Source: Escherichia coli
GTDB taxonomy: Bacteria; Pseudomonadota; Gammaproteobacteria; Enterobacterales; Enterobacteriaceae
DNA: 64,000 nt
Reading direction: 5' to 3' (one strand)
Assembly: GCF_001677475.2 (NCBI RefSeq)
Contig: NZ_CP015229.1
The translations under genes and the position numbers were made by a program. Below, piece after piece: positions 47,053 to 62,518 of this stretch. Numbering within the stretch: position 1 is the first letter of the stretch; each line of letters starts with the position of its first letter. A model generated the notes under the pieces. The model did not search any database and had not been told where the DNA came from. It saw only the letters and a list, made by a program, of their open reading frames with translations.

Positions 47053-48054
47053 TTGCCTGCGCGTTTAAGCCAGCCTCGTATCAGGGGGCTGGTTTAGGCG
47101 TTTTGAATCAACGGGTTCCATGGTGTTGTTCATTTAATCACTGTTTTAGTATCAATTTTCAATAGTATCCTTTCATAGGACTACTCTGGATGCGTTCACC
47201 TTCATTGTCGCTCTAAGCAACTAGATCCTCAGAAATCTCCAGTTAGGTTGCATCCTTCCTTACACACTTTCCTGAAACTTCAGGGTAAGGTGAGAAAGCC
47301 GCCATCACTTTTTCTTATTCCAGCATCTAAATAAATTCCGAATTTTGCTATTAATATCGCTACCGCAATAAAAACAGATAGTAAAGAGAGTAATATATAC
47401 TTTAGTGATATGTTAAGAATAATTGATTGTTAACATATCTAATGGGATAAGATGTGTTTCTGTTAATGAAAATATTCAAGATTTATAGTTGATAATTAAA
47501 ATACACTCGATATCTCAGCCCTTTCTATGCAAGATGCAATTTTATAAGCTGTCCATTTTTTATATGGAGGCGGTAGCGTGTTTGTTACTCGTGATTTTAT
47601 TGGTATGGTGAATATGTTGGGATTGTTAAATACATAACGGCATATCAGTTCCGGTCATTGTAAATATGGGTAATTGCTTAATGTTATTAGTGATTACCGT
47701 TTGAAAGATAAAGAGTGCTGTAAAGCGGTGATAGACATTACATTCATGATTAAAAAACAGAACCTGTCAATAAATAATTCATTTATTAAAAAGGACGACT
47801 TCTATTATGACGGAATATTATCTCAATGAGACGGTTTGCAAATACAGAGCCAGTTTCTCCGGGGTAACGAGCAGGTGTACCAGTGTCAGGTGGCATTTGT
47901 ATTGCCGGGTGAGCGGGTCATGATGGCCTTCACCTACGCCCGAACCACACCGCTGACCCCGGCAGATATGACGCGCTGGGCTGAAATTAAAAAGAATCTG
48001 CGCTTCAGGATGCGGCAGGAAGCCGGGACGAATTAATCACACAGGGAACGGGAC

Positions 48055-51000
48055 ATGGAAGAGGCATTCTGGGCGGCAAGGCAGGGTGATGCCCTGCTGC
48101 ATACGTCGTTTATGGCAGATGTGCTGGGGGCAGTTGTAGAGGTTGCCGCCACAGCCCTGGTGGATGTTCTGGTTGTCGGAACCATGGCGGCGCTGGGCGG
48201 AGTTGAAGTGGCAACGCTGGGCTGCTCAACCATTTTAGCGATCGGTATAGCAACAGCGGTATTTATGTCGTATCAGGGCTGGAATGACCGAATCAGTAGG
48301 GAAAGTGAGCAACTGGCGAACTGGCTTTTCCCGCCTCAGATTGAAGGTTACATCCTCACCGGCTCTGGCGACACATGGATCAACAGCAAACCTGCCGCGC
48401 GGGCCGCGGCGACTGCGGCATCGCGGCAGGACATTGAGGCGCAGGAGGCGCAGGCGAAGGCGGAACAGGAAGAAGCGCAGCGTCAGGAGGATGCCAGAAC
48501 GTTCCTGGATGTGGCCGGGGAATATCTGGAAATGGCGGGGGCCATAGCCCTGGCGGTTAACCCGGTGACAGGGCCTGTGCTGATGTCCCGGGCGCTGCAC
48601 GACCAGCTCAGTACGGAAGAAGGGCGTTCTGAAATGGTGGATGGCGTGACACATTTTGTGTCGGAACTATGGCAGCCCACCGTGGCCAGTGCGGCCCCGG
48701 GCTCCACCCCGACCCCTGACGATAAAATCGACTGCCATAAACATCCCTCCTCACTGACGCAGTTTCTCGCACAAAAAAAAGCCGCCTTTCTGGATGACCC
48801 CCTGGGAACGGCCCTTAACCTGCTGAGTCCGGGCGGTATGCTGGAAACCGCCTTTCAGGGAGTGAATGCGGTTATTGGCAGCATCAGTAATCTGTTCAAA
48901 GGCGATGATGAACCGCCCGCAGCGGAATATATCGCGGAAGGCGCGCGGGATGTGCGTATCAACAGCCAGCCGGCGGCACGCAGCGGGGCACGCTGCACCT
49001 GCGAGGCCAGGGTGGTGAATGAGCCGGGGAACGGGGCGTTTGTGTCACCGGATGTCCGCATTGGCGGTCCGTTACTGGTGGTCAGGGATATCAGAAGCGG
49101 CAGGTCGCAGATAACCCTGGTGGCAACCGTGGCGCTGATGTTTCTTCGCCCGGGCAAAATGCTTTCTAAAATCGCCTGTTTTGCTGCCAGTGTCGGGATG
49201 GGGGTGATGACGCAGAAGGCCATCAGTGCCCTTCCGCATCCGGTCAATGCCGCCACCGGAGCCAAATATCTGGCCGATGACGATGATTTTGACTTCAGTC
49301 TGCCGGGCCACTTTCCGCTGGACTGGCAGCGCGTGTACAGCAGTCGTGACGACCGCACGGAAGGGATGTTCGGGCAGGGCTGGAGTGTAATGTATGAAGT
49401 CAGCCTCGAGCGCACGCCGGGTACTGCTGACGAAAACTGTATGACCTTTGTGTCGGGCATGGGACGACGTCTGGATATGGAGGCCGTGCTGCCGGGGAGC
49501 GGGTTTTACAGCCCCGGCGAAGGACTGGCAGTACGGCGGGGTGAGCAGGGGCACTGGCTTATCAGCAGCGATGACGGGCAGTTTTTTCTGTTTGAGGCCG
49601 ACCCGCGTCACCCGCAGCGCCAGCGGCTGAAAATGCTGGGCGACCGCAACAGCAACTGTCTGAATCTGTACTACGACGAGCTGGGGCGCATCACGCAAAT
49701 CAGCGGTGAACAGCAGCGTCCGTGCATCCGTCTGCATTATGAACTGGCGGCGCATCCCCGGCGGGTGACACAGATTTATCAGCATTTCCCTGAGATGGCT
49801 CCTTTACTGCTGCGTCGTTACCGCTATGACGAGGCCGGCGACCTGAACGGCGTGTACGACAGCACGGGGCACCTGCTGCGCGAGTTTGCTTACGACGAAA
49901 ACCACTGCATGACCCTGCACCGCCAGCCGGGCGGCGAAGGGTATTATTACCAGTGGGGCTGGTATGAAGGCCCGGATGACGCAGCGTGGCGGGTGACGGG
50001 GCACCACACGGACAGCGGTGAACAGTACCGGCTGGCGTGGAGCCTGGCGGCACGCAGGCTGTGCGTGACGGACGGGCTGGGGCGCACGCGTTATCATCAG
50101 TGGGACGCGCAAAATCAGGTGACGGCGTACCAGGACGAAGCCGGGCAGGTGACGACGTTCCGCTGGAGCGACGAAGAACGGCTGTTACTGGGAATGACCG
50201 ATGCGCAGGGCGGCAAATGGCGCTATGTGTATGACCGGCAGGGGCATATCACGGAGACGCACGACCCGCTGGGGCGGGTGGCACAGACACAGTGGCACCC
50301 GGTGTGGCACCAGCCGGAAACGGAGGTGGACGCGGCGGGGAACAGCTGGTGCTGTGAGTACGATGAACGCGGCAATCTTCTTGCGGTGACCGACCCGCTG
50401 CAGCAGAACACCCGGTATCAGTATGACCGCCACGGCCAGGTGGTGCAGATAACGGATGCGCGCGGGGGGAATAAATACCTTCAGTGGAACGAAGACGGGC
50501 AGCTCATGCGGCACACGGACTGTTCCGGCTCGCAGACGGCCTGGTTCTACGACGAACGCACGCGGCTGATACGGATGACAGACGCGCAGAGCCACAGCAC
50601 GCGCTACGGGTATGACGACAGCGGCCACCTGACGGAGGTGATACTGGCGGACGGCCGCACGGTGAATTACCAGTCGGACGCGGCGGGCAGGCTGGTGAAG
50701 TACACCAGCCCGATGGGGAGGATAACGCGCTGGCAGCGGGACGGGCAGGGCCGGGTGCGCAGCCGGACAGACGCGACGGGGCGCAGGACGGCGTTCGGGT
50801 ACGATGCCTACGGGCGTCTGGTCACGCTCACGAACGAGAACGGAGAAAGCTACCGGTTCCGCCATGACGTGCTGGACCGTCTGGCGGAGCAGATAAATCC
50901 GGACGGCTGCCGCCAGACGTACCGCTACAACGCGCTGAACGCGGTCACGGAAGTGGTGTTCACCGGGGACCGGGGCGGTGAAATCCGCCACCGGCTGGCA

Positions 51001-52737
51001 CGTGATGCGGCGGGCCGGCTCACGGCAAAGGAGACAGCCGATGGCCATACGGAATACGTCCATGATGCGGCAGACCAGCTACTGGAAATCCGCCGCCGAC
51101 GGTCGGATGCCGGGGAAACAGACGCACCGGAGATTATCCGTTTCAGTTACGACAGACTGGGGCGGATGCTGACCGAGGAGACGGCGCAGGGCGTCCTGAC
51201 CCATCAGTACGATGAACTCAGCAACCGGACAGCCACCACCTTTCCGGATGGCAGAACGCAGCGTCATCTGTACTACGGCAGCGGCCATCTCCAGCAGATA
51301 AATCTGGACCGGGAGGTCATCAGCGAGTTCACACGTGACGCCCTGCACCGGGAAGTGCTCAGAAGTCAGGGGCGACTGAGCACGCGGCAGCTTTATGACC
51401 CCGCCGGGCGGCTGAAGCGCAGGGAGACATACAGCGGGATGCGCGGGGTGGTACCGGAGACGTTCACGGACCGGCAGTACAGCTACAGCGGCGAGGATGA
51501 ATTGCTGAAGACGCGGCACAGCCGGCGGGGGGAAACGGATTACTTCTACGACCCCACGGGGCGCATCACGGCGTGCCGCTCGGAGGATGAGAGGTATCTG
51601 GCGAGCTGGCAGTACGACGCGGCGGGAAACCTGCTGGGGAGGCGCGCGGGGGAAAGGGCCACGGCAGAAAACAGCGTGGTGCCGTTCAACCGGCTGATGT
51701 CTTACCGTGGTGTGCACTACCGTTATGACGAATTTGGCCGGACGGTGGAAAAGGAGGGCCGGAGCGGCACGCAGAGTTACCGTTATGATGCGGAACACCG
51801 GATGGTGGAAGTGACGACAGCGCGGGGGACATACCGGTATGTGTACGATGCGCTGGGGAGGCGGACGGAAAAACAGCACATCAGCCCTGACGGTAAACCG
51901 TACAACCGGACGACATTTTTATGGGACGGAATGCGGCTGGCGCAGGAGAGCAGGCCGGAGGGAATAAGCAGCCTGTATATCTACAGCGACCCGGGGAGTT
52001 ATGAACCGCTGGCGCGGGTGGATAAGGCGGGCAAAGAGGGCCCGAACCGGATACTGTATTTTCACACGGATGTGAACGGTGCGCCGGAAGAGATGACGGA
52101 CAGTGACGGGAAAATCGTGTGGGAGACGGGGTATCAGGTCTGGGGTAACACGATACAGGAGAAGGACCACGGCGGGGTGGAGCAGAACCTGCGCTACCAG
52201 GGACAGTACCTCGACAGGGAAACGGGGCTGCATTACAATCTGCACAGGTACTATGATCCGGATGTCGGGCGGTTCATGGTAACGGACCCGATAGGGCTGG
52301 CGGGGGGACTGAATCTTTACCAATACTCACCGAATCCAATAAGTTGGATCGACCCGCTGGGATTAACAGGGGAGTGGGTTAATCCCAAAGATATTAATTT
52401 TTCTCAAAGAACAATATCACCTCATGATTATGCCGATATTATGCGTAATGGTGGTTGGGATTGGGACAGGTCTCCATTAAGAGTAATTGATATTGATGGG
52501 CAATTAGTTTCTTATGATAATAGGCGATTAGACGCAGCTCTAGAGGCCGGATTAGATAAGGTTAAAGTCATTAGAGTTGACCCTAATGCTCCTCATCCTG
52601 ACTCATCTACTGGAAAAACATGGTTACAAAAATTCCGAGAGAGATTTAGAGATCGAAGAAATATAAAGGCCGGTGGAATAGTACCAGATAAAGGATTAAA
52701 TTCTCGACCGGAAAGAACATCAAGAGGTTGCAAATGA
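48055..52737 (+). CDS. Rhs-family polymorphic toxin with prePAAR motif, N-terminal TM segments, PAAR motif, YD-repeat shell and variable C-terminal toxin domain
   Basis: 1560-aa ORF; N-terminus MEEAFWAARQGDALLH fits AARxxDxxxH; hydrophobic segments at residues ~20-70; SKPAARA PAAR motif; many YD repeats; [27 protein letters not shown] demarcation before a unique ~130-aa tip. Confidence 0.85.
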   Translation: MEEAFWAARQGDALLHTSFMADVLGAVVEVAATALVDVLVVGTMAALGGVEVATLGCSTILAIGIATAVFMSYQGWNDRISRESEQLANWLFPPQIEGYILTGSGDTWINSKPAARAAATAASRQDIEAQEAQAKAEQEEAQRQEDARTFLDVAGEYLEMAGAIALAVNPVTGPVLMSRALHDQLSTEEGRSEMVDGVTHFVSELWQPTVASAAPGSTPTPDDKIDCHKHPSSLTQFLAQKKAAFLDDPLGTALNLLSPGGMLETAFQGVNAVIGSISNLFKGDDEPPAAEYIAEGARDVRINSQPAARSGARCTCEARVVNEPGNGAFVSPDVRIGGPLLVVRDIRSGRSQITLVATVALMFLRPGKMLSKIACFAASVGMGVMTQKAISALPHPVNAATGAKYLADDDDFDFSLPGHFPLDWQRVYSSRDDRTEGMFGQGWSVMYEVSLERTPGTADENCMTFVSGMGRRLDMEAVLPGSGFYSPGEGLAVRRGEQGHWLISSDDGQFFLFEADPRHPQRQRLKMLGDRNSNCLNLYYDELGRITQISGEQQRPCIRLHYELAAHPRRVTQIYQHFPEMAPLLLRRYRYDEAGDLNGVYDSTGHLLREFAYDENHCMTLHRQPGGEGYYYQWGWYEGPDDAAWRVTGHHTDSGEQYRLAWSLAARRLCVTDGLGRTRYHQWDAQNQVTAYQDEAGQVTTFRWSDEERLLLGMTDAQGGKWRYVYDRQGHITETHDPLGRVAQTQWHPVWHQPETEVDAAGNSWCCEYDERGNLLAVTDPLQQNTRYQYDRHGQVVQITDARGGNKYLQWNEDGQLMRHTDCSGSQTAWFYDERTRLIRMTDAQSHSTRYGYDDSGHLTEVILADGRTVNYQSDAAGRLVKYTSPMGRITRWQRDGQGRVRSRTDATGRRTAFGYDAYGRLVTLTNENGESYRFRHDVLDRLAEQINPDGCRQTYRYNALNAVTEVVFTGDRGGEIRHRLARDAAGRLTAKETADGHTEYVHDAADQLLEIRRRRSDAGETDAPEIIRFSYDRLGRMLTEETAQGVLTHQYDELSNRTATTFPDGRTQRHLYYGSGHLQQINLDREVISEFTRDALHREVLRSQGRLSTRQLYDPAGRLKRRETYSGMRGVVPETFTDRQYSYSGEDELLKTRHSRRGETDYFYDPTGRITACRSEDERYLASWQYDAAGNLLGRRAGERATAENSVVPFNRLMSYRGVHYRYDEFGRTVEKEGRSGTQSYRYDAEHRMVEVTTARGTYRYVYDALGRRTEKQHISPDGKPYNRTTFLWDGMRLAQESRPEGISSLYIYSDPGSYEPLARVDKAGKEGPNRILYFHTDVNGAPEEMTDSDGKIVWETGYQVWGNTIQEKDHGGVEQNLRYQGQYLDRETGLHYNLHRYYDPDVGRFMVTDPIGLAGGLNLYQYSPNPISWIDPLGLTGEWVNPKDINFSQRTISPHDYADIMRNGGWDWDRSPLRVIDIDGQLVSYDNRRLDAALEAGLDKVKVIRVDPNAPHPDSSTGKTWLQKFRERFRDRRNIKAGGIVPDKGLNSRPERTSRGCK

Positions 52738-53168
52738 AAAATATTATTCAGTTATGGGAAGATGGTTTATTACCGATAAAAGATGCTATTTACTTTTCTA
52801 ACGGTGAATCTTTCCTTTGTAAAATAACATCTTACCCTACTCCTTGTATTGAGAAAAATGGTGAGTTTGATTTCTCTGCCTTTTATGAAAAAAATAAAGA
52901 TGAAGTTACTGATATTGATAAGTCTAGAGAAGTTAAATTAGCGAATAATTGCTATTGTTGCATTGGAGAAGGTAGTTATGGTTCTGAAGGATTTATCGCA
53001 TATCTCGATGAAAATAAAAACTTAGTTTGGGTTCTTTATTCCGAAGAATCTAATCCATTTATTAATATAACTGAATATACATCTGATATTATTATAGTAG
53101 AATCAAGTTCTAATATTAGACTAAGAATAAATATAAACAATCCAGTGGATTTAGAATTGGCATTTTAA
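52734..53168 (+). CDS. Putative cognate immunity protein of the Rhs C-terminal toxin
   Basis: ATG overlaps the rhs TGA stop (ATGA); AT-rich 144-aa ORF directly downstream of a toxin tip. Confidence 0.6.
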   Translation: MKNIIQLWEDGLLPIKDAIYFSNGESFLCKITSYPTPCIEKNGEFDFSAFYEKNKDEVTDIDKSREVKLANNCYCCIGEGSYGSEGFIAYLDENKNLVWVLYSEESNPFINITEYTSDIIIVESSSNIRLRININNPVDLELAF

Positions 53169-53169
53169 A

Positions 53170-53211
53170 TAAAAAGCCGGGTGAAATTAAATCTTCCCGG
53201 CTTTTTTATTA
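53170..53211. terminator. Hairpin terminator (AAAGCCGGG-loop-CCCGGCTTTTTT), first of four copies of this motif
   Basis: Perfect GC stem flanked by A and T runs between the immunity gene and the convergent symE-like gene; similar hairpins at 57795-57835, 60412-60452 and 62816-62902. Confidence 0.7.
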
Positions 53212-53212
53212 T

Positions 53213-53542
53213 TTAACTCTCGTTCAGCACACTAAACATCCCGTTCCGCATCCCCTTAACCACCTGTTTAACCTGATAAAGTTCTTCCCGCAGCTCCTGC
53301 ACCTCGTCACTGTCAGCGATGATGGTCAGGTACCCCTCCGAAATCTTCACCGTGACACCCCGCCCGGTATCAAATCCCGCCTCAGCCAGCCAGTCGCCCT
53401 TGAGGTGCAGGCTGGGATGTTGTGAATAATACCGGGCTATACCTGTTGTGCGGTCCTGGTGGCGGGTTCTGACATAGCCGACTTTATAGCGGCGCTGGGT
53501 TTTGGAAATGGTGACTTCTGGCGTAATATCGTGTTCAGCCAT
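53213..53542 (-). CDS. SymE-like protein (type I toxin family, AbrB/MazE-like fold), full-length copy
   Basis: 109-aa ORF; core HLKGDWLAEAGFDTGRGVTVKISEGYLTII resembles SymE KGxWLxxAGFxxGxxVxV motif as recalled. Confidence 0.6.
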   Translation of the reverse strand: MAEHDITPEVTISKTQRRYKVGYVRTRHQDRTTGIARYYSQHPSLHLKGDWLAEAGFDTGRGVTVKISEGYLTIIADSDEVQELREELYQVKQVVKGMRNGMFSVLNES

Positions 53543-53781: not shown

Positions 53782-54861
53782 GTGCGCCAGGCGGCCTACG
53801 CGCTCAAGCTGTTGCAGTCGGACGGGGAACTGACCATCGCCAGTACGGGCAAGGATGACGCCAGCGGTAACCTGGTCACCAAACAGTATACGGTGAAAGG
53901 CCCGGTGATGCTGATGCTGACCACCACCGCCATCGATGTTGACGAGGAGTTACTCAACCGCTGTCTGGTGCTGACGGTGAACGAATCGCGGGAACAGACG
54001 GAAGCTATCCACGCGGCGCAGCGTTACGCGCAGACGCTGGAAGGACTGCTGGCGGCTAACGAAAAAAGTTACATCACGCAGCTTCACCAGAACGCGCAGC
54101 GGCTGCTGCGCCCGCTCAACGTGGTGAACCCGTTCGCCTCGCAGCTCACGTTCATGAGCGACAAAACCCGCACCCGGCGCGACCACATGAAATACCTGAC
54201 GCTGATCCAGGCGATCGCCCTGCTGCACCAGTACCAGCGGGAGATCAAGCGCGTGGAGCATCGCGGGCAGGTGGTGGAGTACATCGAGGTCACGCGGGAG
54301 GACATCGCCCTGGCGAACCGCCTGGCACATGAAATACTCGGGCGCACCCTGGATGAAATGCCGCCGCAGACGCGCAAACTGTTAACCCTGATCCAGCAAT
54401 GGGTGAGCGACAGCGGTCAGGCGCGTGAGGCGATGCGGTTCACCCGTAAACAACTGCGTGACGCGGTACAGTGGGGCGACACGCAGCTCAAGATCCACCT
54501 GGCGCGGCTGGTCGAAATGGAATATCTGCTGGTCCACCGTCTCGGGCTGACGTTCTGCTATGAACTGCTGTTCGACGGGGACGGCAGCGCAGACACCGCG
54601 CACCTGTGCGGGCTGATCGACGTACCGGAACCACCGTATGACGTCGCCCGGTCGGGGGAAACGGTGAAGCAGCTGGCCTCTGGTCGGGCAGTGGTCGGCG
54701 GTCAGTCGGGTAAGGAAAAAACCGCCTCAGACCAGACACCACGAGGCTTACAGGCCGGAGCGGTCGGGGCAGAGGAAAAAGCCCTGTTCCGGCAGAACGC
54801 AAAAAAACCGTCCCGCAATCATACTGCGGCCCGTCCGGGCCGGAGCAACACGGAAGCATAA
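53782..54861 (+). CDS. Hypothetical protein, apparently 5'-truncated (no ATG; frame closed by TAA just upstream); function unknown
   Basis: 1080-nt open frame in GC-rich DNA, far longer than the overlapping opposite-strand ORFs; no family recognised. Confidence 0.35.
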   Translation: MRQAAYALKLLQSDGELTIASTGKDDASGNLVTKQYTVKGPVMLMLTTTAIDVDEELLNRCLVLTVNESREQTEAIHAAQRYAQTLEGLLAANEKSYITQLHQNAQRLLRPLNVVNPFASQLTFMSDKTRTRRDHMKYLTLIQAIALLHQYQREIKRVEHRGQVVEYIEVTREDIALANRLAHEILGRTLDEMPPQTRKLLTLIQQWVSDSGQAREAMRFTRKQLRDAVQWGDTQLKIHLARLVEMEYLLVHRLGLTFCYELLFDGDGSADTAHLCGLIDVPEPPYDVARSGETVKQLASGRAVVGGQSGKEKTASDQTPRGLQAGAVGAEEKALFRQNAKKPSRNHTAARPGRSNTEA

Positions 54862-55065
54862 GTACGACTTCATCCGGTCGGGGCAACGGCTGCAATAGTC
54901 GGCCCCTGGTCGGCAGTCAGTCGGCGGGTAGTCGGGGTGCGTAAAACCCCCGCAGGCCGCGCCCGGCAAGGTTCAGGCCATGAAGCGGTCGGCCTGCCTG
55001 AAAATCACTGTTCCATCCTCTGTTCTTCTCTCTGTCGTACCGTAATCTCAATCAGGACAATCATC

Positions 55066-56095
55066 ATGACAAAACCCATCCCTCCGGGGCCGGAGGAACT
55101 TTACCTCAGCCGCCAGAACCTGACGCAGCGCCAGTATGTGGTGGTGTGGCTGGAATACCTGACGGCACAGAACTACAGCGCGATCAGCGTAAGCGACTAT
55201 CGCGAACGGGTGTTACCGTTCGTGACATGGTGTGAGGAGCGCGGGCTGATGTACGCGCCGCAGGTCAGCCAGCCGCAGCTTGAAAGCTATCAGCGCCACC
55301 TTCACGGCTACCGTAAGGCGGACGGCCATCCGCTGGCGGTCAGCGGTCAGGTGGGCCGGATAAGCGCGATAAAAATCTTTTACCGCTGGCTGCTGAAGCG
55401 GCATGTGATCCTGTACAACCCCGCCGATCTGCTGGAACTGCCAAAGCCGGACAAACGGCTTCCGGCGCAGGTGTTCAGTAAGGGCGAGACGCGGCAGGTG
55501 TTACAGAGCCTTGATATCAACACGCCCGTTGGCCTGCGCAACCGGACAATCCTTGAGGTGCTGTGGAGTACCGGGATCAGGCGGATGGAGCTGGCCAGCC
55601 TGATGTTGTGGGATGTTGACACCGGGCGCGGTGTGGTTAACGTGCGGCAGGGTAAGGGGCGTAAGGATCGGGTGGTTCCGGTGGGCCATGTGGCGCTGGG
55701 ATGGCTGGCAAGACGTGCGACCACAGATGACGCGCCAGCGCGACAGTGGTCATCTGTTCGTGACGAAATACGGCAGCGGGATGAAACGCAACACGCTGAC
55801 GGCGATGGCAGGCACCGCGATCCGGGAAACGGCACGGATCGACAAACCGGGCGCGTGCCATATCTTCCGGCACTCGATGGCGACGCAGATGCTGGACAAT
55901 GGCGCAGACACGCGGCATATCCAGGCGATCCTCGGCCATGAGAAGCTGGAGACGACGCAGATCTACACGAAGGTGGCCATAAAGCCGTTGCAGAAGGTTC
56001 ATGCGCGGACGCACCCGGCAGAGAAGCGGCGAAGGGAAAAGCGCGTGCAGCAGCCGGACGAGGCCACCGTATCGCCGGACAGCCTGAAAAGTTAG
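55066..56095 (+). pseudogene. Tyrosine recombinase (phage-integrase family) with frameshift
   Basis: N-terminal SAM-like domain in one frame to ~55710 ([13 protein letters not shown]), catalytic domain ([16 protein letters not shown]...[13 protein letters not shown]...[13 protein letters not shown]) in the other frame from ~55700; single indel inferred. Confidence 0.65.
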
Positions 56096-57005
56096 GTGGC
56101 GATCCCTGTAAGGCCGTGGGGTGCGGTGCAGGGCAGACAACCGCCTTCCCTGGCGGTTGACTGCCCCCTGCCAGCGGCGTGCGCGGGGGTAAATGCCGTC
56201 CGCCCCGTGGAGGCAGCCGCGCCCCATGCGACCATGCAGCACGGGGCAAACGTCATTCAACATAATGCGGATTATGCGCACTCTCGCCGGTCGGCAATGA
56301 CGGCGAACCCGATCCGCTGTGCGCGGCTCGTGTTCGCACAATCCGCATTATGTCTGACGCCCCCGCGTTCAGCCCCGTGGTCCGTGCAGCGCAAAGCTTC
56401 GCTGGCGCTCCGCTCTGCTGCCGGGTGCGGTGTTCTTCTGTGGCCCCGCAGTCGCCGCCATCCCTGGCGGCTCCGGTGCCGTTCTGCGGCAGCGTCATCG
56501 TGTGGCAGTCAGTCAGAAAAGGGTGTCGGCCTGGCGGCCTCCGCTTGTAAGGGCTTTATGCCCGCCCGGCGTCGTCTGGCTGCGGCGGCTCGTGCCGCGC
56601 AAAAAGGCCGCGCGTCACTCGTTCCCGCCTCGCCAGCTTCCGCTGCCCGCCCCGGTCAGGTGTGGTCATGCAAAGGCAACCCCCGGTCAGGCAGCGGTGC
56701 CACAGAGCGCCGTTCCGTCGCTTGCGGACTCTCTGCCGCCCGCACCCGCAGACCCCGCGCCGTGGCCCCGCCATGCCGCCGGAGGCGTCCTGGCGGCCCC
56801 CCGTCACGGGGTGCCGGAAACGGACTTAGTGGAAAGCGGAATGACAGGCGGTGGTGGTGGTGCTATGGTGAGCGGGCGTGAAAATGCGCGTCGGGAAAGT
56901 CGGGTTAACGTGCTGTTAAATAAGTAAAAGGTGATAGCCGGGAAGCCAGAAACGGCGCGGGCGGTAGCGTGTTAAAAAGTGTGACCTGCACCGGATCGTT
57001 CCGAT

Positions 57006-57515
57006 GACCCGATAGGACTGCGGGGTGGATTAAATCTCTATCAATATGCGCCGAATCCGTTGAGCTATATTGATCCTCTTGGCCTTTGTAAATTAAGGGG
57101 AAGTAATGGGCGCTTCAGAAGTGCTCAGAATATTCAGGAAGAAATAGGCGGACTACCTAATTTTTCAGGGAAGACTCCAGGGCAAATACGACAAACTTTG
57201 CGTAATCGAGTTTATTCGTCGGTACAAGCGCATAGTGGTGGAGAGGTCTGGACAAAAGCATTACCTGACGGAAATACTGTTGCTGTGAGAATTGACCCGG
57301 CAAATCCTCGCTCACCTTCACATTATGCTGATGCTGTGCCTCATGCTCATATTGAAACAGTTCCAACGTCCAGTGTTTCTAATGGGAATTATCGCCCACG
57401 AGACGTGACTGGCAGGCATACTGCCACTGGTGGGATTTCTGACCGAGGAACGAATCCGAATCATAATGCTGATGTTCACATTCCAATGTCTCCGGGACGA
57501 TTCCCATATAATTAA
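57006..57515 (+). CDS. Orphan Rhs C-terminal toxin module (DPIGL homology patch plus toxin tip), no upstream core
   Basis: Frame opens with [28 protein letters not shown] then a unique ~140-aa domain; no ATG at the patch. Confidence 0.6.
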   Translation, partial: DPIGLRGGLNLYQYAPNPLSYIDPLGLCKLRGSNGRFRSAQNIQEEIGGLPNFSGKTPGQIRQTLRNRVYSSVQAHSGGEVWTKALPDGNTVAVRIDPANPRSPSHYADAVPHAHIETVPTSSVSNGNYRPRDVTGRHTATGGISDRGTNPNHNADVHIPMSPGRFPYN

Positions 57516-57526
57516 TGTGAGGTTTT

Positions 57527-57790
57527 ATGAATATCCGAAATCAATATAATGAAGCCTTAAATAAATTAGAAGTTGATGTTAATGATGGTTTAAGAGATTT
57601 AATAAACATATATTGTGTAGCTATTGATTCTTTTGAAAATGATATCGTTGACTCGATTGCTTTATACGTGATTGATATGGGAAATAAAGATACTTGTCGA
57701 TATCTACAAGAAATATTATCAGAGAATGAAGATCCTTATTTAGTAAAAGAATTTAATGCATGGATGAAAGAAATTAAGAAAAAATATTAA
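57527..57790 (+). CDS. Putative immunity protein for the orphan toxin at 57006-57515
   Basis: AT-rich 87-aa ORF 11 nt downstream of the toxin stop with RBS-like GAGG. Confidence 0.5.
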   Translation: MNIRNQYNEALNKLEVDVNDGLRDLINIYCVAIDSFENDIVDSIALYVIDMGNKDTCRYLQEILSENEDPYLVKEFNAWMKEIKKKY

Positions 57791-58419: not shown

Positions 58420-59700
58420 CGCATTTTATGTTTAAAAATTGAGATATTCCTCATTACATAAAGCTGTTTTTTATTGCTTATACATGATCAAATACTCCTT
58501 ACATAATTAAGGAGAACAAAATGGAACTTAAAAAATTGATGGAACATATTTCTATTATCCCCGATTACAGACAAGCCTGGAAAGTGGAACATAAATTATC
58601 GGATATTCTACTGTTGACTATTTGTGCCGTTATTTCGGGTGCAGAAGGCTGGGAAGATATAGAGGATTTTGGGGAAACACATCTCGATTTTTTGAAGCAA
58701 TATGGTGATTTTGATAATGGTATTCCTGTTCACGATACCATTGCCAGAGTTGTATCCTGTATCAGTCCTGCAAAATTTCACGAGTGCTTTATTAACTGGA
58801 TGCGTGACTGCCATTCTTCAGATGATAAAGACGTCATCGCAATTGATGGAAAAACGCTCCGGCATTCTTATGACAAGAGTCGCCGCAGGGGAGCGATTCA
58901 TGTCATTAGTGCGTTCTCAACAATGCACAGTCTGGTCATCGGACAGATCAGGACGGATGAGAAATCAAATGAAATTACAGCTATCCCTGAACTTCTTAAC
59001 ATGCTGGATATTAAAGGAAAAATCATCACAACTGATGCGATGGGTTGCCAGAAAGATATTGCAGAGAAGATACAAAAACAGGGAGGTGATTATTTATTCG
59101 CTGTAAAAGGAAACCAGGGGCGGCTAAATAAAGCCTTTGAGGAAAAATTCCCACTGAAAGAATTAAATAATCCAGAGCATGACAGTTACGCAATTAGTGA
59201 AAAGAGTCACGGCAGAGAAGAAATCCGTCTTCACATTGTTTGCGATGTCCCTGATGAACTTATTGATTTCACGTTTGAATGGAAAGGACTGAAGAAATTA
59301 TGCGTGGCAGTCTCCTTTCGGTCAATAATAGCAGAACAAAAGAAAGAGCCAGAAATGACGGTCAGATATTATATCAGTTCTGCTGATTTAACCGCAGAGA
59401 AGTTCGCCACAGCAATCCGAAACCACTGGCACGTGGAGAATAAGCTGCACTGGCGTCTGGACGTGGTAATGAATGAAGACGACTGCAAAATAAGAAGAGG
59501 AAACGCCGCAGAATTATTTTCAGGGATACGGCACATCGCTATTAATATTTTAACGAATGATAAGGTATTCAAGGCAGGGTTAAGACGTAAGATGCGAAAA
59601 GCAGCCATGGACAGAAACTATCTCGCGTCAGTCCTTGCGGGGAGCGGGCTTTCGTAATCTTGCCCTGGGGGAAATCCAAAAAGTAAGCCTACATACGGTC
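58420..59700 (+). mobile_element. ISAs1-family (H-repeat) element; ends not precisely mapped
   Basis: Contains the 378-aa H-repeat-associated transposase ORF; boundaries approximate. Confidence 0.6.
58521..59657 (+). CDS. ISAs1-family transposase (H-repeat-associated protein, YhhI/YbfD-like)
   Basis: 378-aa ORF with typical H-rpt protein content; K-12 rhs loci carry homologues. Confidence 0.8.
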
Positions 59701-59726: not shown

Positions 59727-59993
59727 ATGAAACCAAGTCAGTTAATTGATCGTGCCAGAAATAAAGGTCATCAAGTAGGACAATATCTCGATGATAATTC
59801 TGCTGCTGATTTTATTGCTTCTGTTGCCAAAAAAGGTCCGGGTGTGCATGATGTGCCATTGCCTACAAATATAAAAGGTCGAGGTTATTTGCCTGATGGG
59901 ACAGAGGTCGTTCCAGATATGGCAAGGGTTGTTGTAAAACCCGATGGTTCTGTACGAACATCGTTCCCATTCAATTCATCACACACCAACTAA
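59727..59993 (+). CDS. Hypothetical protein, possibly the distal part of an orphan toxin split by the ISAs1 insertion
   Basis: 88-aa ORF starting 70 nt after the H-rpt transposase stop, followed by an immunity-like ORF. Confidence 0.35.
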   Translation: MKPSQLIDRARNKGHQVGQYLDDNSAADFIASVAKKGPGVHDVPLPTNIKGRGYLPDGTEVVPDMARVVVKPDGSVRTSFPFNSSHTN

Positions 59994-60704: not shown

Positions 60705-62083
60705 GCCAGACGTACCGTTACAACGCGCTGAACGCGGTCACGGAAGTGGTGTTCACCGGGGACCGGGGCGGTGAAATCCGCCACCGGCTGGCACGTGATG
60801 CGGCGGGCCGGCTCACGGCAAAGGAGACAGCCGATAGCCGAACGGAATACGTCCATGATGCGGCAGACCAGCTACTGGAAATCCGCCGCCGACGGTCGGA
60901 TGCCGGGGAAATGGACGCACCGGAGATTATCCGTTTCAGTTACGACAGACTGGGGCGGATGCTGACTGAGGAGACGGCGCAGGGCGTCCTGACCCATCAG
61001 TACGATGAACTCAGCAACCGGACAGCCACCACCTTTCCGGACGGCAGAACGCAGCGTCATCTGTACTACGGCAGCGGCCATCTCCAGCAGATAAATCTGG
61101 ACCGGGAGGTCATCAGCGAGTTCACACGTGACGCCCTGCACCGGGAAGTGCTCAGAAGTCAGGGGCGACTGAGCACGCGGCAGCTTTATGACCCCGCCGG
61201 GCGGCTGAAGCGCAGGGAGACATACAGCGGGATGCGCGGGGTGGTACCGGAGACGTTCACGGACCGGCAGTACAGCTACAGCGGCGAGGATGAACTGCTG
61301 AAGACGCGGCACAGCCGGCGGGGGGAAACGGATTACTTCTACGACCCCACGGGGCGCATCACGGCGTGCCGCTCGGAGGATGAGGGGTATCTGGCGAGCT
61401 GGCAGTACGACGCGGCGGGAAACCTGCTGGGGAGGCGCGCGGGGGAAAGGGCCACGGCAGAAAACAGCGTGGTGCCGTTCAACCGGCTGATGTCTTACCG
61501 TGGTGTGCACTACCGTTATGACGAATTTGGCCGGACGGTGGAAAAGGAGGGCCGGAGCGGCACGCAGAGTTACCGTTATGATGCGGAACACCGGATGGTG
61601 GAAGTGACGACAGCGCGGGGGACATACCGGTATGTGTACGATGCGCTGGGGAGGCGGACGGAAAAACAGCACATCAGCCCTGACGGTAAAGCGTACAACC
61701 GGACGACATTTTTATGGGACGGAATGCGGCTGGCGCAGGAGAGCAGGCCGGAGGGAATAAGTAGCCTGTATATCTACAGCGACCCGGGGAGTTATGAACC
61801 GCTGGCGCGGGTGGATAAGGCGGGCAAAGAGGGCCCGAACCGGATACTGTATTTTCACACGGATGTGAACGGTGCGCCGGAAGAGATGACGGACAGTGAC
61901 GGGAAAATCGTGTGGGAGACGGGGTATCAGGTCTGGGGTAACACGATACAGGAGAAGGACCACGGCGGGGTGGAGCAGAACCTGCGCTACCAGGGACAGT
62001 ACCTCGACAGGGAAACGGGGCTGCACTACAATCTGCACAGGTACTATGATCCGGATGTCGGGCGGTTCATGGTAACGGACCCG
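60705..62083 (+). repeat. Near-identical direct repeat of the main rhs core 3' region (50914-52292)
   Basis: Nucleotide and protein near-identity to the main rhs over ~1.38 kb with a handful of substitutions (read by eye). Confidence 0.8.
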
Positions 62084-62518
62084 ATAGGGCTGAGAGGCGG
62101 ATTAAACTTATACCAATACGCGCCTAATCCGTTAAGCTGGATCGATCCTCTTGGATTAAGTGCCGCCTCTGATTTACCTCAATTAAAAGGAAGATCCCCA
62201 GGGGCAATAGGTTCTATTCTTACTGATAATGGATTCAATTTAGATAAACAAACAAGTACCGGGAATCAGACTTGGAGCCACGCCGATGGTTCTAAAGTTC
62301 GTGTCGATCCCTATGGAAACCAAAGTATGACTATGAAAAACGGTGATCCATTACCGAAATCAGGAGCTAACGCACATGTGCATAAATATGATCCCGGTGA
62401 GATACCGCTGAATGACAGAGGCATTCCGAGTACAAATCCAAATGAAACACATATAGGGATCAGGAATCCAAATGATTATTCTACAAAACGAGGGCGGGCC
62501 CATGGGTGCGGCGTATAA
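60746..62518 (+). CDS. Orphan Rhs fragment: C-terminal part of YD-repeat core plus an alternative C-terminal toxin tip
   Basis: 590-aa ORF; first ~455 aa match the main Rhs, ending [27 protein letters not shown], then a unique ~120-aa tip. Confidence 0.8.
   Translation: MVFTGDRGGEIRHRLARDAAGRLTAKETADSRTEYVHDAADQLLEIRRRRSDAGEMDAPEIIRFSYDRLGRMLTEETAQGVLTHQYDELSNRTATTFPDGRTQRHLYYGSGHLQQINLDREVISEFTRDALHREVLRSQGRLSTRQLYDPAGRLKRRETYSGMRGVVPETFTDRQYSYSGEDELLKTRHSRRGETDYFYDPTGRITACRSEDEGYLASWQYDAAGNLLGRRAGERATAENSVVPFNRLMSYRGVHYRYDEFGRTVEKEGRSGTQSYRYDAEHRMVEVTTARGTYRYVYDALGRRTEKQHISPDGKAYNRTTFLWDGMRLAQESRPEGISSLYIYSDPGSYEPLARVDKAGKEGPNRILYFHTDVNGAPEEMTDSDGKIVWETGYQVWGNTIQEKDHGGVEQNLRYQGQYLDRETGLHYNLHRYYDPDVGRFMVTDPIGLRGGLNLYQYAPNPLSWIDPLGLSAASDLPQLKGRSPGAIGSILTDNGFNLDKQTSTGNQTWSHADGSKVRVDPYGNQSMTMKNGDPLPKSGANAHVHKYDPGEIPLNDRGIPSTNPNETHIGIRNPNDYSTKRGRAHGCGV

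Follow-up and report, generated by a model that had tools for sequence, protein, structure and literature searches.

The window analysed here, a stretch of 64,000 nucleotides of the Escherichia coli contig NZ_CP015229.1, encodes an Rhs polymorphic toxin whose C-terminal tip is, according to its predicted structure, a single-domain member of the ParB/sulfiredoxin (Srx) superfamily. We propose that this tip is a nucleoside triphosphate (NTP)-dependent toxin, either an NTPase or a phosphotransferase, which would be neutralised by the product of the immunity gene that overlaps its end; we put the probability of this reading at about 0.6. We favour it because the structural relatives of the tip use nucleotides, because ToxB, a toxin with a ParB fold, is an ATPase, because the DNRR motif of the tip shares its Asn and last Arg with the GNHR motif of ToxB, and because the tip family has no conserved His. 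A preliminary description of the sequence had supposed a DNase-type effector; that the tip cuts DNA is unlikely. The gene pair and the motifs on which the argument turns are as follows.

48055..52737, plus strand: Rhs polymorphic toxin gene, a single long and intact open reading frame (ORF) of 1560 codons.
52351..52365, plus strand: DPLGL, at the end of the Rhs core (PxxxxDPxGL), Rhs residues 1433-1437; by its motif, the autoproteolysis site.
52366..52734, plus strand: toxin tip of 123 residues, Rhs residues 1438-1560, with a predicted ParB/Srx fold and motifs of the Tox-ParBL1 type.
52396..52410, plus strand: NFSQR motif, Rhs residues 1448-1452, whose S and Q are invariant in a divergent alignment.
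52516..52527, plus strand: DNRR motif, Rhs residues 1488-1491, counterpart of ParB GERR and ToxB GNHR, whose N and last R are invariant.
52734..53168, plus strand: cognate immunity gene, encoding 144 residues with an isoelectric point (pI) of 4.3; an intact ORF whose ATG start shares bases with the stop codon of the Rhs gene (ATGA).

The preliminary description had picked out a peptide at the C-terminal end of the Rhs protein and had likened it to the (D/G)xxRxxA core of ParB/sulfiredoxin-type nuclease domains. The peptide, VIDIDGQLVSYDNRRLDAALEAG, is present at Rhs residues 1477-1499 (nucleotides 52483-52551), inside the 123-residue tip and past DPLGL; the span 52350-52737 takes in the cleavage motif, the tip and the stop codon. 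Amino acid composition would predict 0.16 occurrences of the loose pattern [DG]xxRxxA for a stretch of 123 residues and about two for the whole Rhs protein, and one occurrence was observed; the loose pattern alone therefore proves nothing. A profile comparison and a structure prediction, both of which had been suggested as checks, indicated that the resemblance to the ParB core is real. Using hhalign, we compared an alignment of 35 members of the tip family with an alignment of four genuine ParB N-terminal domains from the PDB. Tip residues 37-73 aligned to Spo0J residues 42-79, with DNRR placed exactly over GERR (P 2.9e-5, probability 74%), which supports DNRRLDAA of the tip as the structural counterpart of ParB GERRxRAA. 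AlphaFold, run on the tip with the 35-sequence alignment, returned a model with a ParB/Srx fold at high confidence (predicted local distance difference test, pLDDT, 94.6; predicted template modelling score, pTM, 0.86; all five models with a pLDDT of at least 93). In this model, in tip numbering, DNRR stands at the N-terminus of a helix (52-60) that follows two strands (38-43 and 46-49), and thus provides the strand-turn-helix phosphate motif (GxxR) of the ParB/Srx superfamily. The best matches of the tip in a fold search were the serine kinase SerK, sulfiredoxin, SbnI, and the cytidine triphosphate (CTP)-binding ParB, KorB and PadC; the matching families returned by Foldseek, at a probability of 1.0, agreed with these.

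In the 35-sequence alignment, N11, Q14, D51, N52, R53, R54, L55, A58, W86, R93 and G110 of the tip are invariant, and S13 and R15 nearly so; in a more divergent alignment (A5), S13, Q14, G45, N52, R54, G110 and P115 are still invariant. The motif residues correspond to S1450 and Q1451 (NFSQR) and to D1488, N1489 and R1491 (DNRR) of the Rhs protein, and all of the family-invariant residues are present in the E. coli tip. No His is conserved in the alignments of the tip family, and only one acidic residue is. The NFSQR motif falls roughly at the site of ParB NPxQPR; since hhalign reached this region only in global or low-threshold mode and with a low-confidence register, that register was not relied on. 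The charge of the tip (pI 9.7 as a whole) is very unevenly distributed: residues 1-74 are acidic (pI 4.9), and residues 75-123 form a very basic (pI 11.3), family-specific C-terminal extension of 49 residues, which could bind a polyanionic target.

Domain libraries do not hold this family. Neither the tip nor the immunity protein gave more than chance-level matches in Pfam and NCBIfam, namely HTH_Tnp_Tc5 (E 0.16) and an FxLD methyltransferase (E 0.024), both of which we rejected. The matches to SETMAR and gastrodianin obtained when PDB sequences were searched with a profile of the tip alignment (E 0.016-1.2) were likewise dismissed as chance, being driven by the string YDNRR. The tip has no match to PF02195 (ParB_N) above its gathering score, and two of 25 divergent family members touched that profile below threshold (E 0.025). 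Because Pfam and NCBIfam lack the tip family, annotation names its members "hypothetical".

A protein search nevertheless returned 67 relatives of the tip, from Enterobacteria, Pseudomonas, Gilliamella, Streptomyces, Ruminococcus and Bacteroidales. Their carriers, where visible, were Rhs or PT-HINT proteins; many were short unnamed fragments, and no Pfam domain covered the tip region in any of the 67. An exhaustive search with a hidden Markov model found 1090 cluster representatives at E<=1e-3, 156 of them at E<=1e-10. The domain almost always came last in its protein, a median of 3 residues following it, and it was found on PT-HINT proteins and on Rhs proteins of both Gram-negative and Gram-positive types; PT-TG was represented by one weak sub-threshold match. 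A WXG100 polyvalent toxin of 3255 residues and proteins named filamentous haemagglutinin by JGI were further carriers, and no MafB or LXG carrier was found among the matches scanned. Three proteins placed the ParBL1-like domain unusually, away from the terminus: the WXG100-headed protein (P0178) combines a glutamine-deamidase toxin domain with an internal ParBL1-like domain at residues 1059-1140, P0113 has a subtilase downstream of it, and P0139 was matched in three separate stretches.

In motifs and carriers the tip fits the published definition of Tox-ParBL1, to which we assigned it on these grounds rather than by alignment to the type member, Neisseria gonorrhoeae NGK_2271 (Zhang, de Souza, Anantharaman, Iyer, Aravind 2012, Biol Direct 7:18). 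Tox-ParBL1 was defined by a predicted ParB fold with the signatures [ST] and [NT][RT][RT], by a conserved N-terminal Ser that classical ParB lacks, and by its occurrence on RHS, FilH, HINT, WXG, LXG and MafB toxins (Zhang et al. 2012, PMC3482391). In the tip the N-terminal Ser is S13 (Rhs residue 1450), which is invariant in the divergent alignment. The [NT][RT][RT] signature, mostly N-R-R, is represented by the invariant N52 and R54 and by R53, which is usual and gives way in divergent members to variants such as DNTR. The Rhs, PT-HINT, WXG100 and "filamentous hemagglutinin" carriers agree with the definition as well. An association with Imm-SUKH or Imm44, which accompanies Tox-ParBL1 without strictly defining it, does not extend to the 144-residue protein encoded here. 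Our literature search found no experimental study of the tip family; the tip is thus a new member of a family previously known from computation only.

The gene that carries the tip has the build of a PAAR-Rhs effector of a type VI secretion system (T6SS), judged by its RHS repeats and core, PAAR domain, prePAAR motif, DPLGL, variable tip and downstream partner. Read from the translation, residues 7-16 form the prePAAR motif AARQGDALLH and are followed by hydrophobic helices. A Pfam scan identified PAAR (PF05488, residues 291-321, E 3.9e-8), DUF6531, 15 stretches of RHS repeats (PF05593, E 2.6e-79) and the RHS core (PF03527, residues 1333-1369, E 9.7e-15). The end of the core reads PNPISWIDPLGL. 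In Rhs and Tc toxins, a motif of the DPxGL type is the site of the C-terminal autoproteolysis that frees the tip. Where the tip starts, the GC content drops from about 0.58 to about 0.39, and in the ORF that follows it is down to about 0.3; this is the usual mark of a swapped-in toxin-immunity cassette and points to the tip and its immunity gene as an acquired module. The flanks are about 98% identical to the E. coli kdpFABCDE-ybfA region, which makes this an rhsC-type locus. Among 5426 complete E. coli genomes, one, that of strain A34, shares the tip and immunity DNA (97.3% identity), and its copy of the Rhs gene is frameshifted. Tips 98-99% identical to that of E. coli occur in Salmonella enterica, where a single cluster holds 243 sequences. 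A tblastn search of plasmids with the tip gave two weak matches only, so plasmids do not carry the tip as a module.

The immunity partner is uncatalogued: the protein has no Pfam match even at E<=10 and no NCBIfam match above chance. Its structure is confidently predicted (pLDDT 93.9) to be all-beta, resembling the blades of a beta-propeller, and it carries a conserved motif, GEGSYGSEGF...W...SNPF. Propeller domains were not found among immunity proteins by Zhang et al. 2012 (PMC3482391). In Pseudomonas delhiensis, Gilliamella and Streptomyces, a related tip is immediately followed downstream by a gene for a homologue of the immunity protein (50%, 30% and 29% identity, respectively) with the same motif, and the pair has therefore been inherited together across phyla.

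In the mechanism that we propose, the Rhs protein would cleave itself at DPLGL, and delivery of the 123-residue tip to an adjacent cell would follow. There, as its fold and the position of its motif suggest, the tip would bind a nucleoside triphosphate, most likely adenosine triphosphate (ATP), and would poison the cell either by nucleotide hydrolysis or by phosphate transfer to a cellular target; the acidic, all-beta immunity protein would presumably block it by direct binding. The close structural relatives are all nucleotide-using: the kinases SerK and SbnI, the ATP-dependent phosphotransferase sulfiredoxin, and the CTP-binding proteins ParB, Noc, KorB and PadC. In ParB, the Gln of NPxQPR is needed for CTP hydrolysis, and the tip keeps a Gln at roughly that position in the low-confidence register described above. 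In the Menshen analysis of 2025 (PMC12065111), variants of ParB count as NTPases, and motif II is the centre at which they bind nucleotide. Among polymorphic toxins with a ParB fold, ToxB alone has been studied experimentally so far; it is a CdiA-CT with a ParB-CTPase fold that acts as an ATPase toxin (Kaljevic et al., bioRxiv 2026, 10.64898/2026.05.05.722872). According to the same study, ATP binding by ToxB has a dissociation constant of about 87 uM, and its turnover is about 300 ATP per hour; the toxin depends on R108, in the GNHR motif, and the R108A variant loses both ATP binding and hydrolysis. In cells poisoned by ToxB the nucleoid is compacted, genomic DNA stays intact and the SOS response is not induced, and the ToxB immunity protein occludes the pocket of the toxin.

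Several points weigh against an NTP-dependent toxin. A nuclease role for ParB-type toxins was favoured by Zhang et al. 2012 (PMC3482391). Nucleotide binding by the tip is predicted from fold and motif position only, and the register between NFSQR and NPxQPR is of low confidence. The basic C-terminal extension would equally suit nucleic-acid binding. The family also appears too far from ToxB for its activity to be transferred safely, because PF02195 misses it and because both carrier and immunity protein differ. Finally, prePAAR effectors rely on Eag-type chaperones, and the chaperone gene at this locus is broken:

47807..48036, plus strand: pseudogene, left over from the Eag/DcrB-like (DUF1795) chaperone gene that as a rule stands upstream of this Rhs gene.

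Relative to E. coli A34, where the gene does precede this Rhs, the remnant has an internal, out-of-frame deletion of 223 nucleotides, which reduces the gene from 453 to 230 nucleotides. Its last 66 codons alone stay in frame, and they match PF08786 (DcrB, E 1.8e-5); an intact cognate Eag (DUF1795) gene, as would be looked for beside a PAAR-Rhs effector, is lacking at the locus. Because of this deletion, the Rhs copy in this strain, although its ORF is intact, may be poorly exported.

The strongest competing explanation, itself unlikely, would make the tip a metal-dependent DNase (or RNase), with a ParB-like site that hydrolyses phosphodiester bonds in nucleic acid of the target cell. Nucleases dominate the tips of polymorphic toxins, and the pairing of a basic tip with an acidic immunity protein recurs in many nuclease-immunity pairs. 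ParB toxins were argued to be possible nucleases by Zhang et al. 2012 (PMC3482391), and Osa, a ParB/Srx protein, is cited as a multi-activity enzyme (Maindola et al. 2014, reference in PMC12065111). However, with no conserved His and only one conserved acidic residue, the family is poorly equipped to form the site of a metal-dependent nuclease. The DGHHR motif, whose histidines were invoked for ParB-type nucleases (Zhang et al. 2012, PMC3482391) and are conserved in classical Tox-ParB and Osa-like proteins, is absent from the tip family; the label "ParB-like nuclease" is historical, and the same authors describe its original basis as erroneous. Moreover, the close structural matches of the tip are all nucleotide-using enzymes or switches, and ToxB spared genomic DNA and left the SOS response uninduced. 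Thus, of the reading first given to this sequence, the ParB/sulfiredoxin fold stands, on the AlphaFold model, the fold searches and hhalign, whereas the DNase function is not supported.

We consider it improbable that the tip is a non-catalytic binder, which would be toxic stoichiometrically by sequestering nucleotide or by coating and compacting nucleic acid or another polyanion with its basic tail. The very basic 49-residue extension would suit such a role, canonical ParB proteins are generally regarded as switches rather than fast enzymes, and in ToxB slow ATP turnover (about 300 per hour) goes together with nucleoid compaction. Against this, the tip has neither a helix-turn-helix (HTH) nor any other DNA-binding domain, and a T6SS spike would bring few toxin molecules into each target cell, which would favour catalysis. 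Conserved polar residues also occupy catalytic positions: Q lies roughly on the Gln of ParB QPR (in the same low-confidence register) and N lies on the Glu of GERR, both of which have a hydrolytic role in ParB.

An equally small chance attaches to the tip being a decaying relic, inactive in this strain because its Rhs locus is no longer deployed: the disrupted chaperone gene, the frameshifted Rhs gene of the sole complete E. coli genome sharing the tip (A34), and a neighbourhood full of orphan tips, an insertion sequence (IS) element and recombinase fragments would agree with decay, but neither the Rhs ORF (1560 codons) nor the immunity ORF is disrupted, every family-invariant residue is kept, nearly identical tips are retained in many Salmonella sequences, and decay would in any case bear on deployment in this strain and not on the function of the domain.

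An NTP-dependent toxin therefore remains the reading that we prefer, and a more specific version of it can be put forward with odds slightly short of even. The tip may be the first NTP-using ParB-fold toxin delivered by Rhs and the T6SS, acting as an ATPase like ToxB or as a kinase or phosphotransferase on an essential target, with a distinct S-Q plus D-N-R-R site, a basic extension and an uncatalogued immunity family that resembles propeller blades. The kinase or phosphotransferase option would be the more interesting of the two. If this is true, a large uncharacterised toxin family (>1000 cluster representatives) gains a new mode of action. Rhs tips are a reservoir of antibacterial activities, and this family is large, spanning Proteobacteria, Actinobacteria, Firmicutes and Bacteroidales. 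The work on ToxB in 2026 showed that killing by a ParB fold can proceed by way of ATP and without DNA cleavage. Should Tox-ParBL1 tips likewise depend on a nucleotide, then "ParB-like nuclease" is a misleading label for toxins in many genomes, and the family would be a second, independent instance of a fold from chromosome segregation serving as a weapon. The pair is small (123 and 144 residues) and its predicted structures are confident, which makes it easy to test, and the result obtained with ToxB, from a sister family, makes a non-nuclease mechanism directly testable.

The cassette appears to be closed on its downstream side by a hairpin.

53171..53206, between the immunity gene and the convergent symE: GC-rich hairpin flanked by runs of A and T.

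Its predicted folding energy is -16.6 kcal/mol (z -3.6); a scan for consensus terminators missed it, its loop being long. It is probably a bidirectional terminator that closes the cassette before symE, a SymE-type type I toxin gene on the minus strand (53213-53542; PF08845, E 6e-20) that converges with the immunity gene. Downstream of symE lies a high-GC insert (about 0.6-0.65; 53782-56930), with an ORF of 359 residues that has no Pfam match and a tyrosine-recombinase ORF that contains the first half of PF00589 only, followed by an apparent frameshift; the insert looks like a decayed integrative element. An orphan Rhs tip follows (57060-57790), which starts ..YIDPLGL, runs for 151 residues and is succeeded by an ORF of 87 residues that probably encodes its immunity protein; Pfam has no match for either. 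Among the orphan tips is an intact DDE transposase gene (58521-59657; DDE_Tnp_1_assoc and DDE_Tnp_1), which we take to be of the H-repeat/ISAs1 type, a typical companion of E. coli rhs loci. A second Rhs C-terminal fragment (60746-62518) encodes 590 residues with RHS repeats, an RHS core at residues 367-403 and its own tip of about 190 residues; a small ORF upstream of it (59727..59993) has no Pfam match.

Among known systems, sulfiredoxin and the free serine kinases SerK and SbnI, which are ParB/Srx enzymes, share only 7-20% identity with the tip and act on unrelated substrates. The tip lacks the Cys that is catalytic in sulfiredoxin, where it lies in GGCHR, and differs further by an S-Q motif and a basic tail of its own. 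The canonical CTP-dependent DNA clamps ParB, Spo0J, Noc and KorB resemble the tip in the fold of their N-terminal domain and in GERRxRAA, which corresponds to DNRRLDAA. Unlike these clamps, the tip, a single secreted toxin domain of 123 residues, has no HTH, no C-terminal dimerisation domain and no ParA-binding motif. ATPase activity has been shown for ToxB only, which is detectable with PF02195, follows VENN on CdiA, carries GNHR and is reported in 52 of 68,709 species; the tip is invisible to PF02195, sits on Rhs, belongs to a far larger family, and has in addition its basic C-terminal extension and an unrelated immunity protein. Both nevertheless consist of one toxin domain with a ParB fold, which forms the C-terminus of a polymorphic toxin, both are devoid of a DNA-binding domain, both have a small immunity gene directly downstream, and the Asn and last Arg of ToxB GNHR and tip DNRR occupy matching positions of the phosphate motif. 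The partners of Tox-ParBL1 as described in 2012 were Imm-SUKH and Imm44, in contrast to the unannotated all-beta immunity protein found here; with the tip it shares the predicted ParB fold, the N-terminal Ser, the N-R-R motif (DNTR in divergent members), its place at the C-terminus of toxins of the Rhs, HINT, filamentous-haemagglutinin and WXG types, and a distribution over Proteobacteria, Actinobacteria and Firmicutes.

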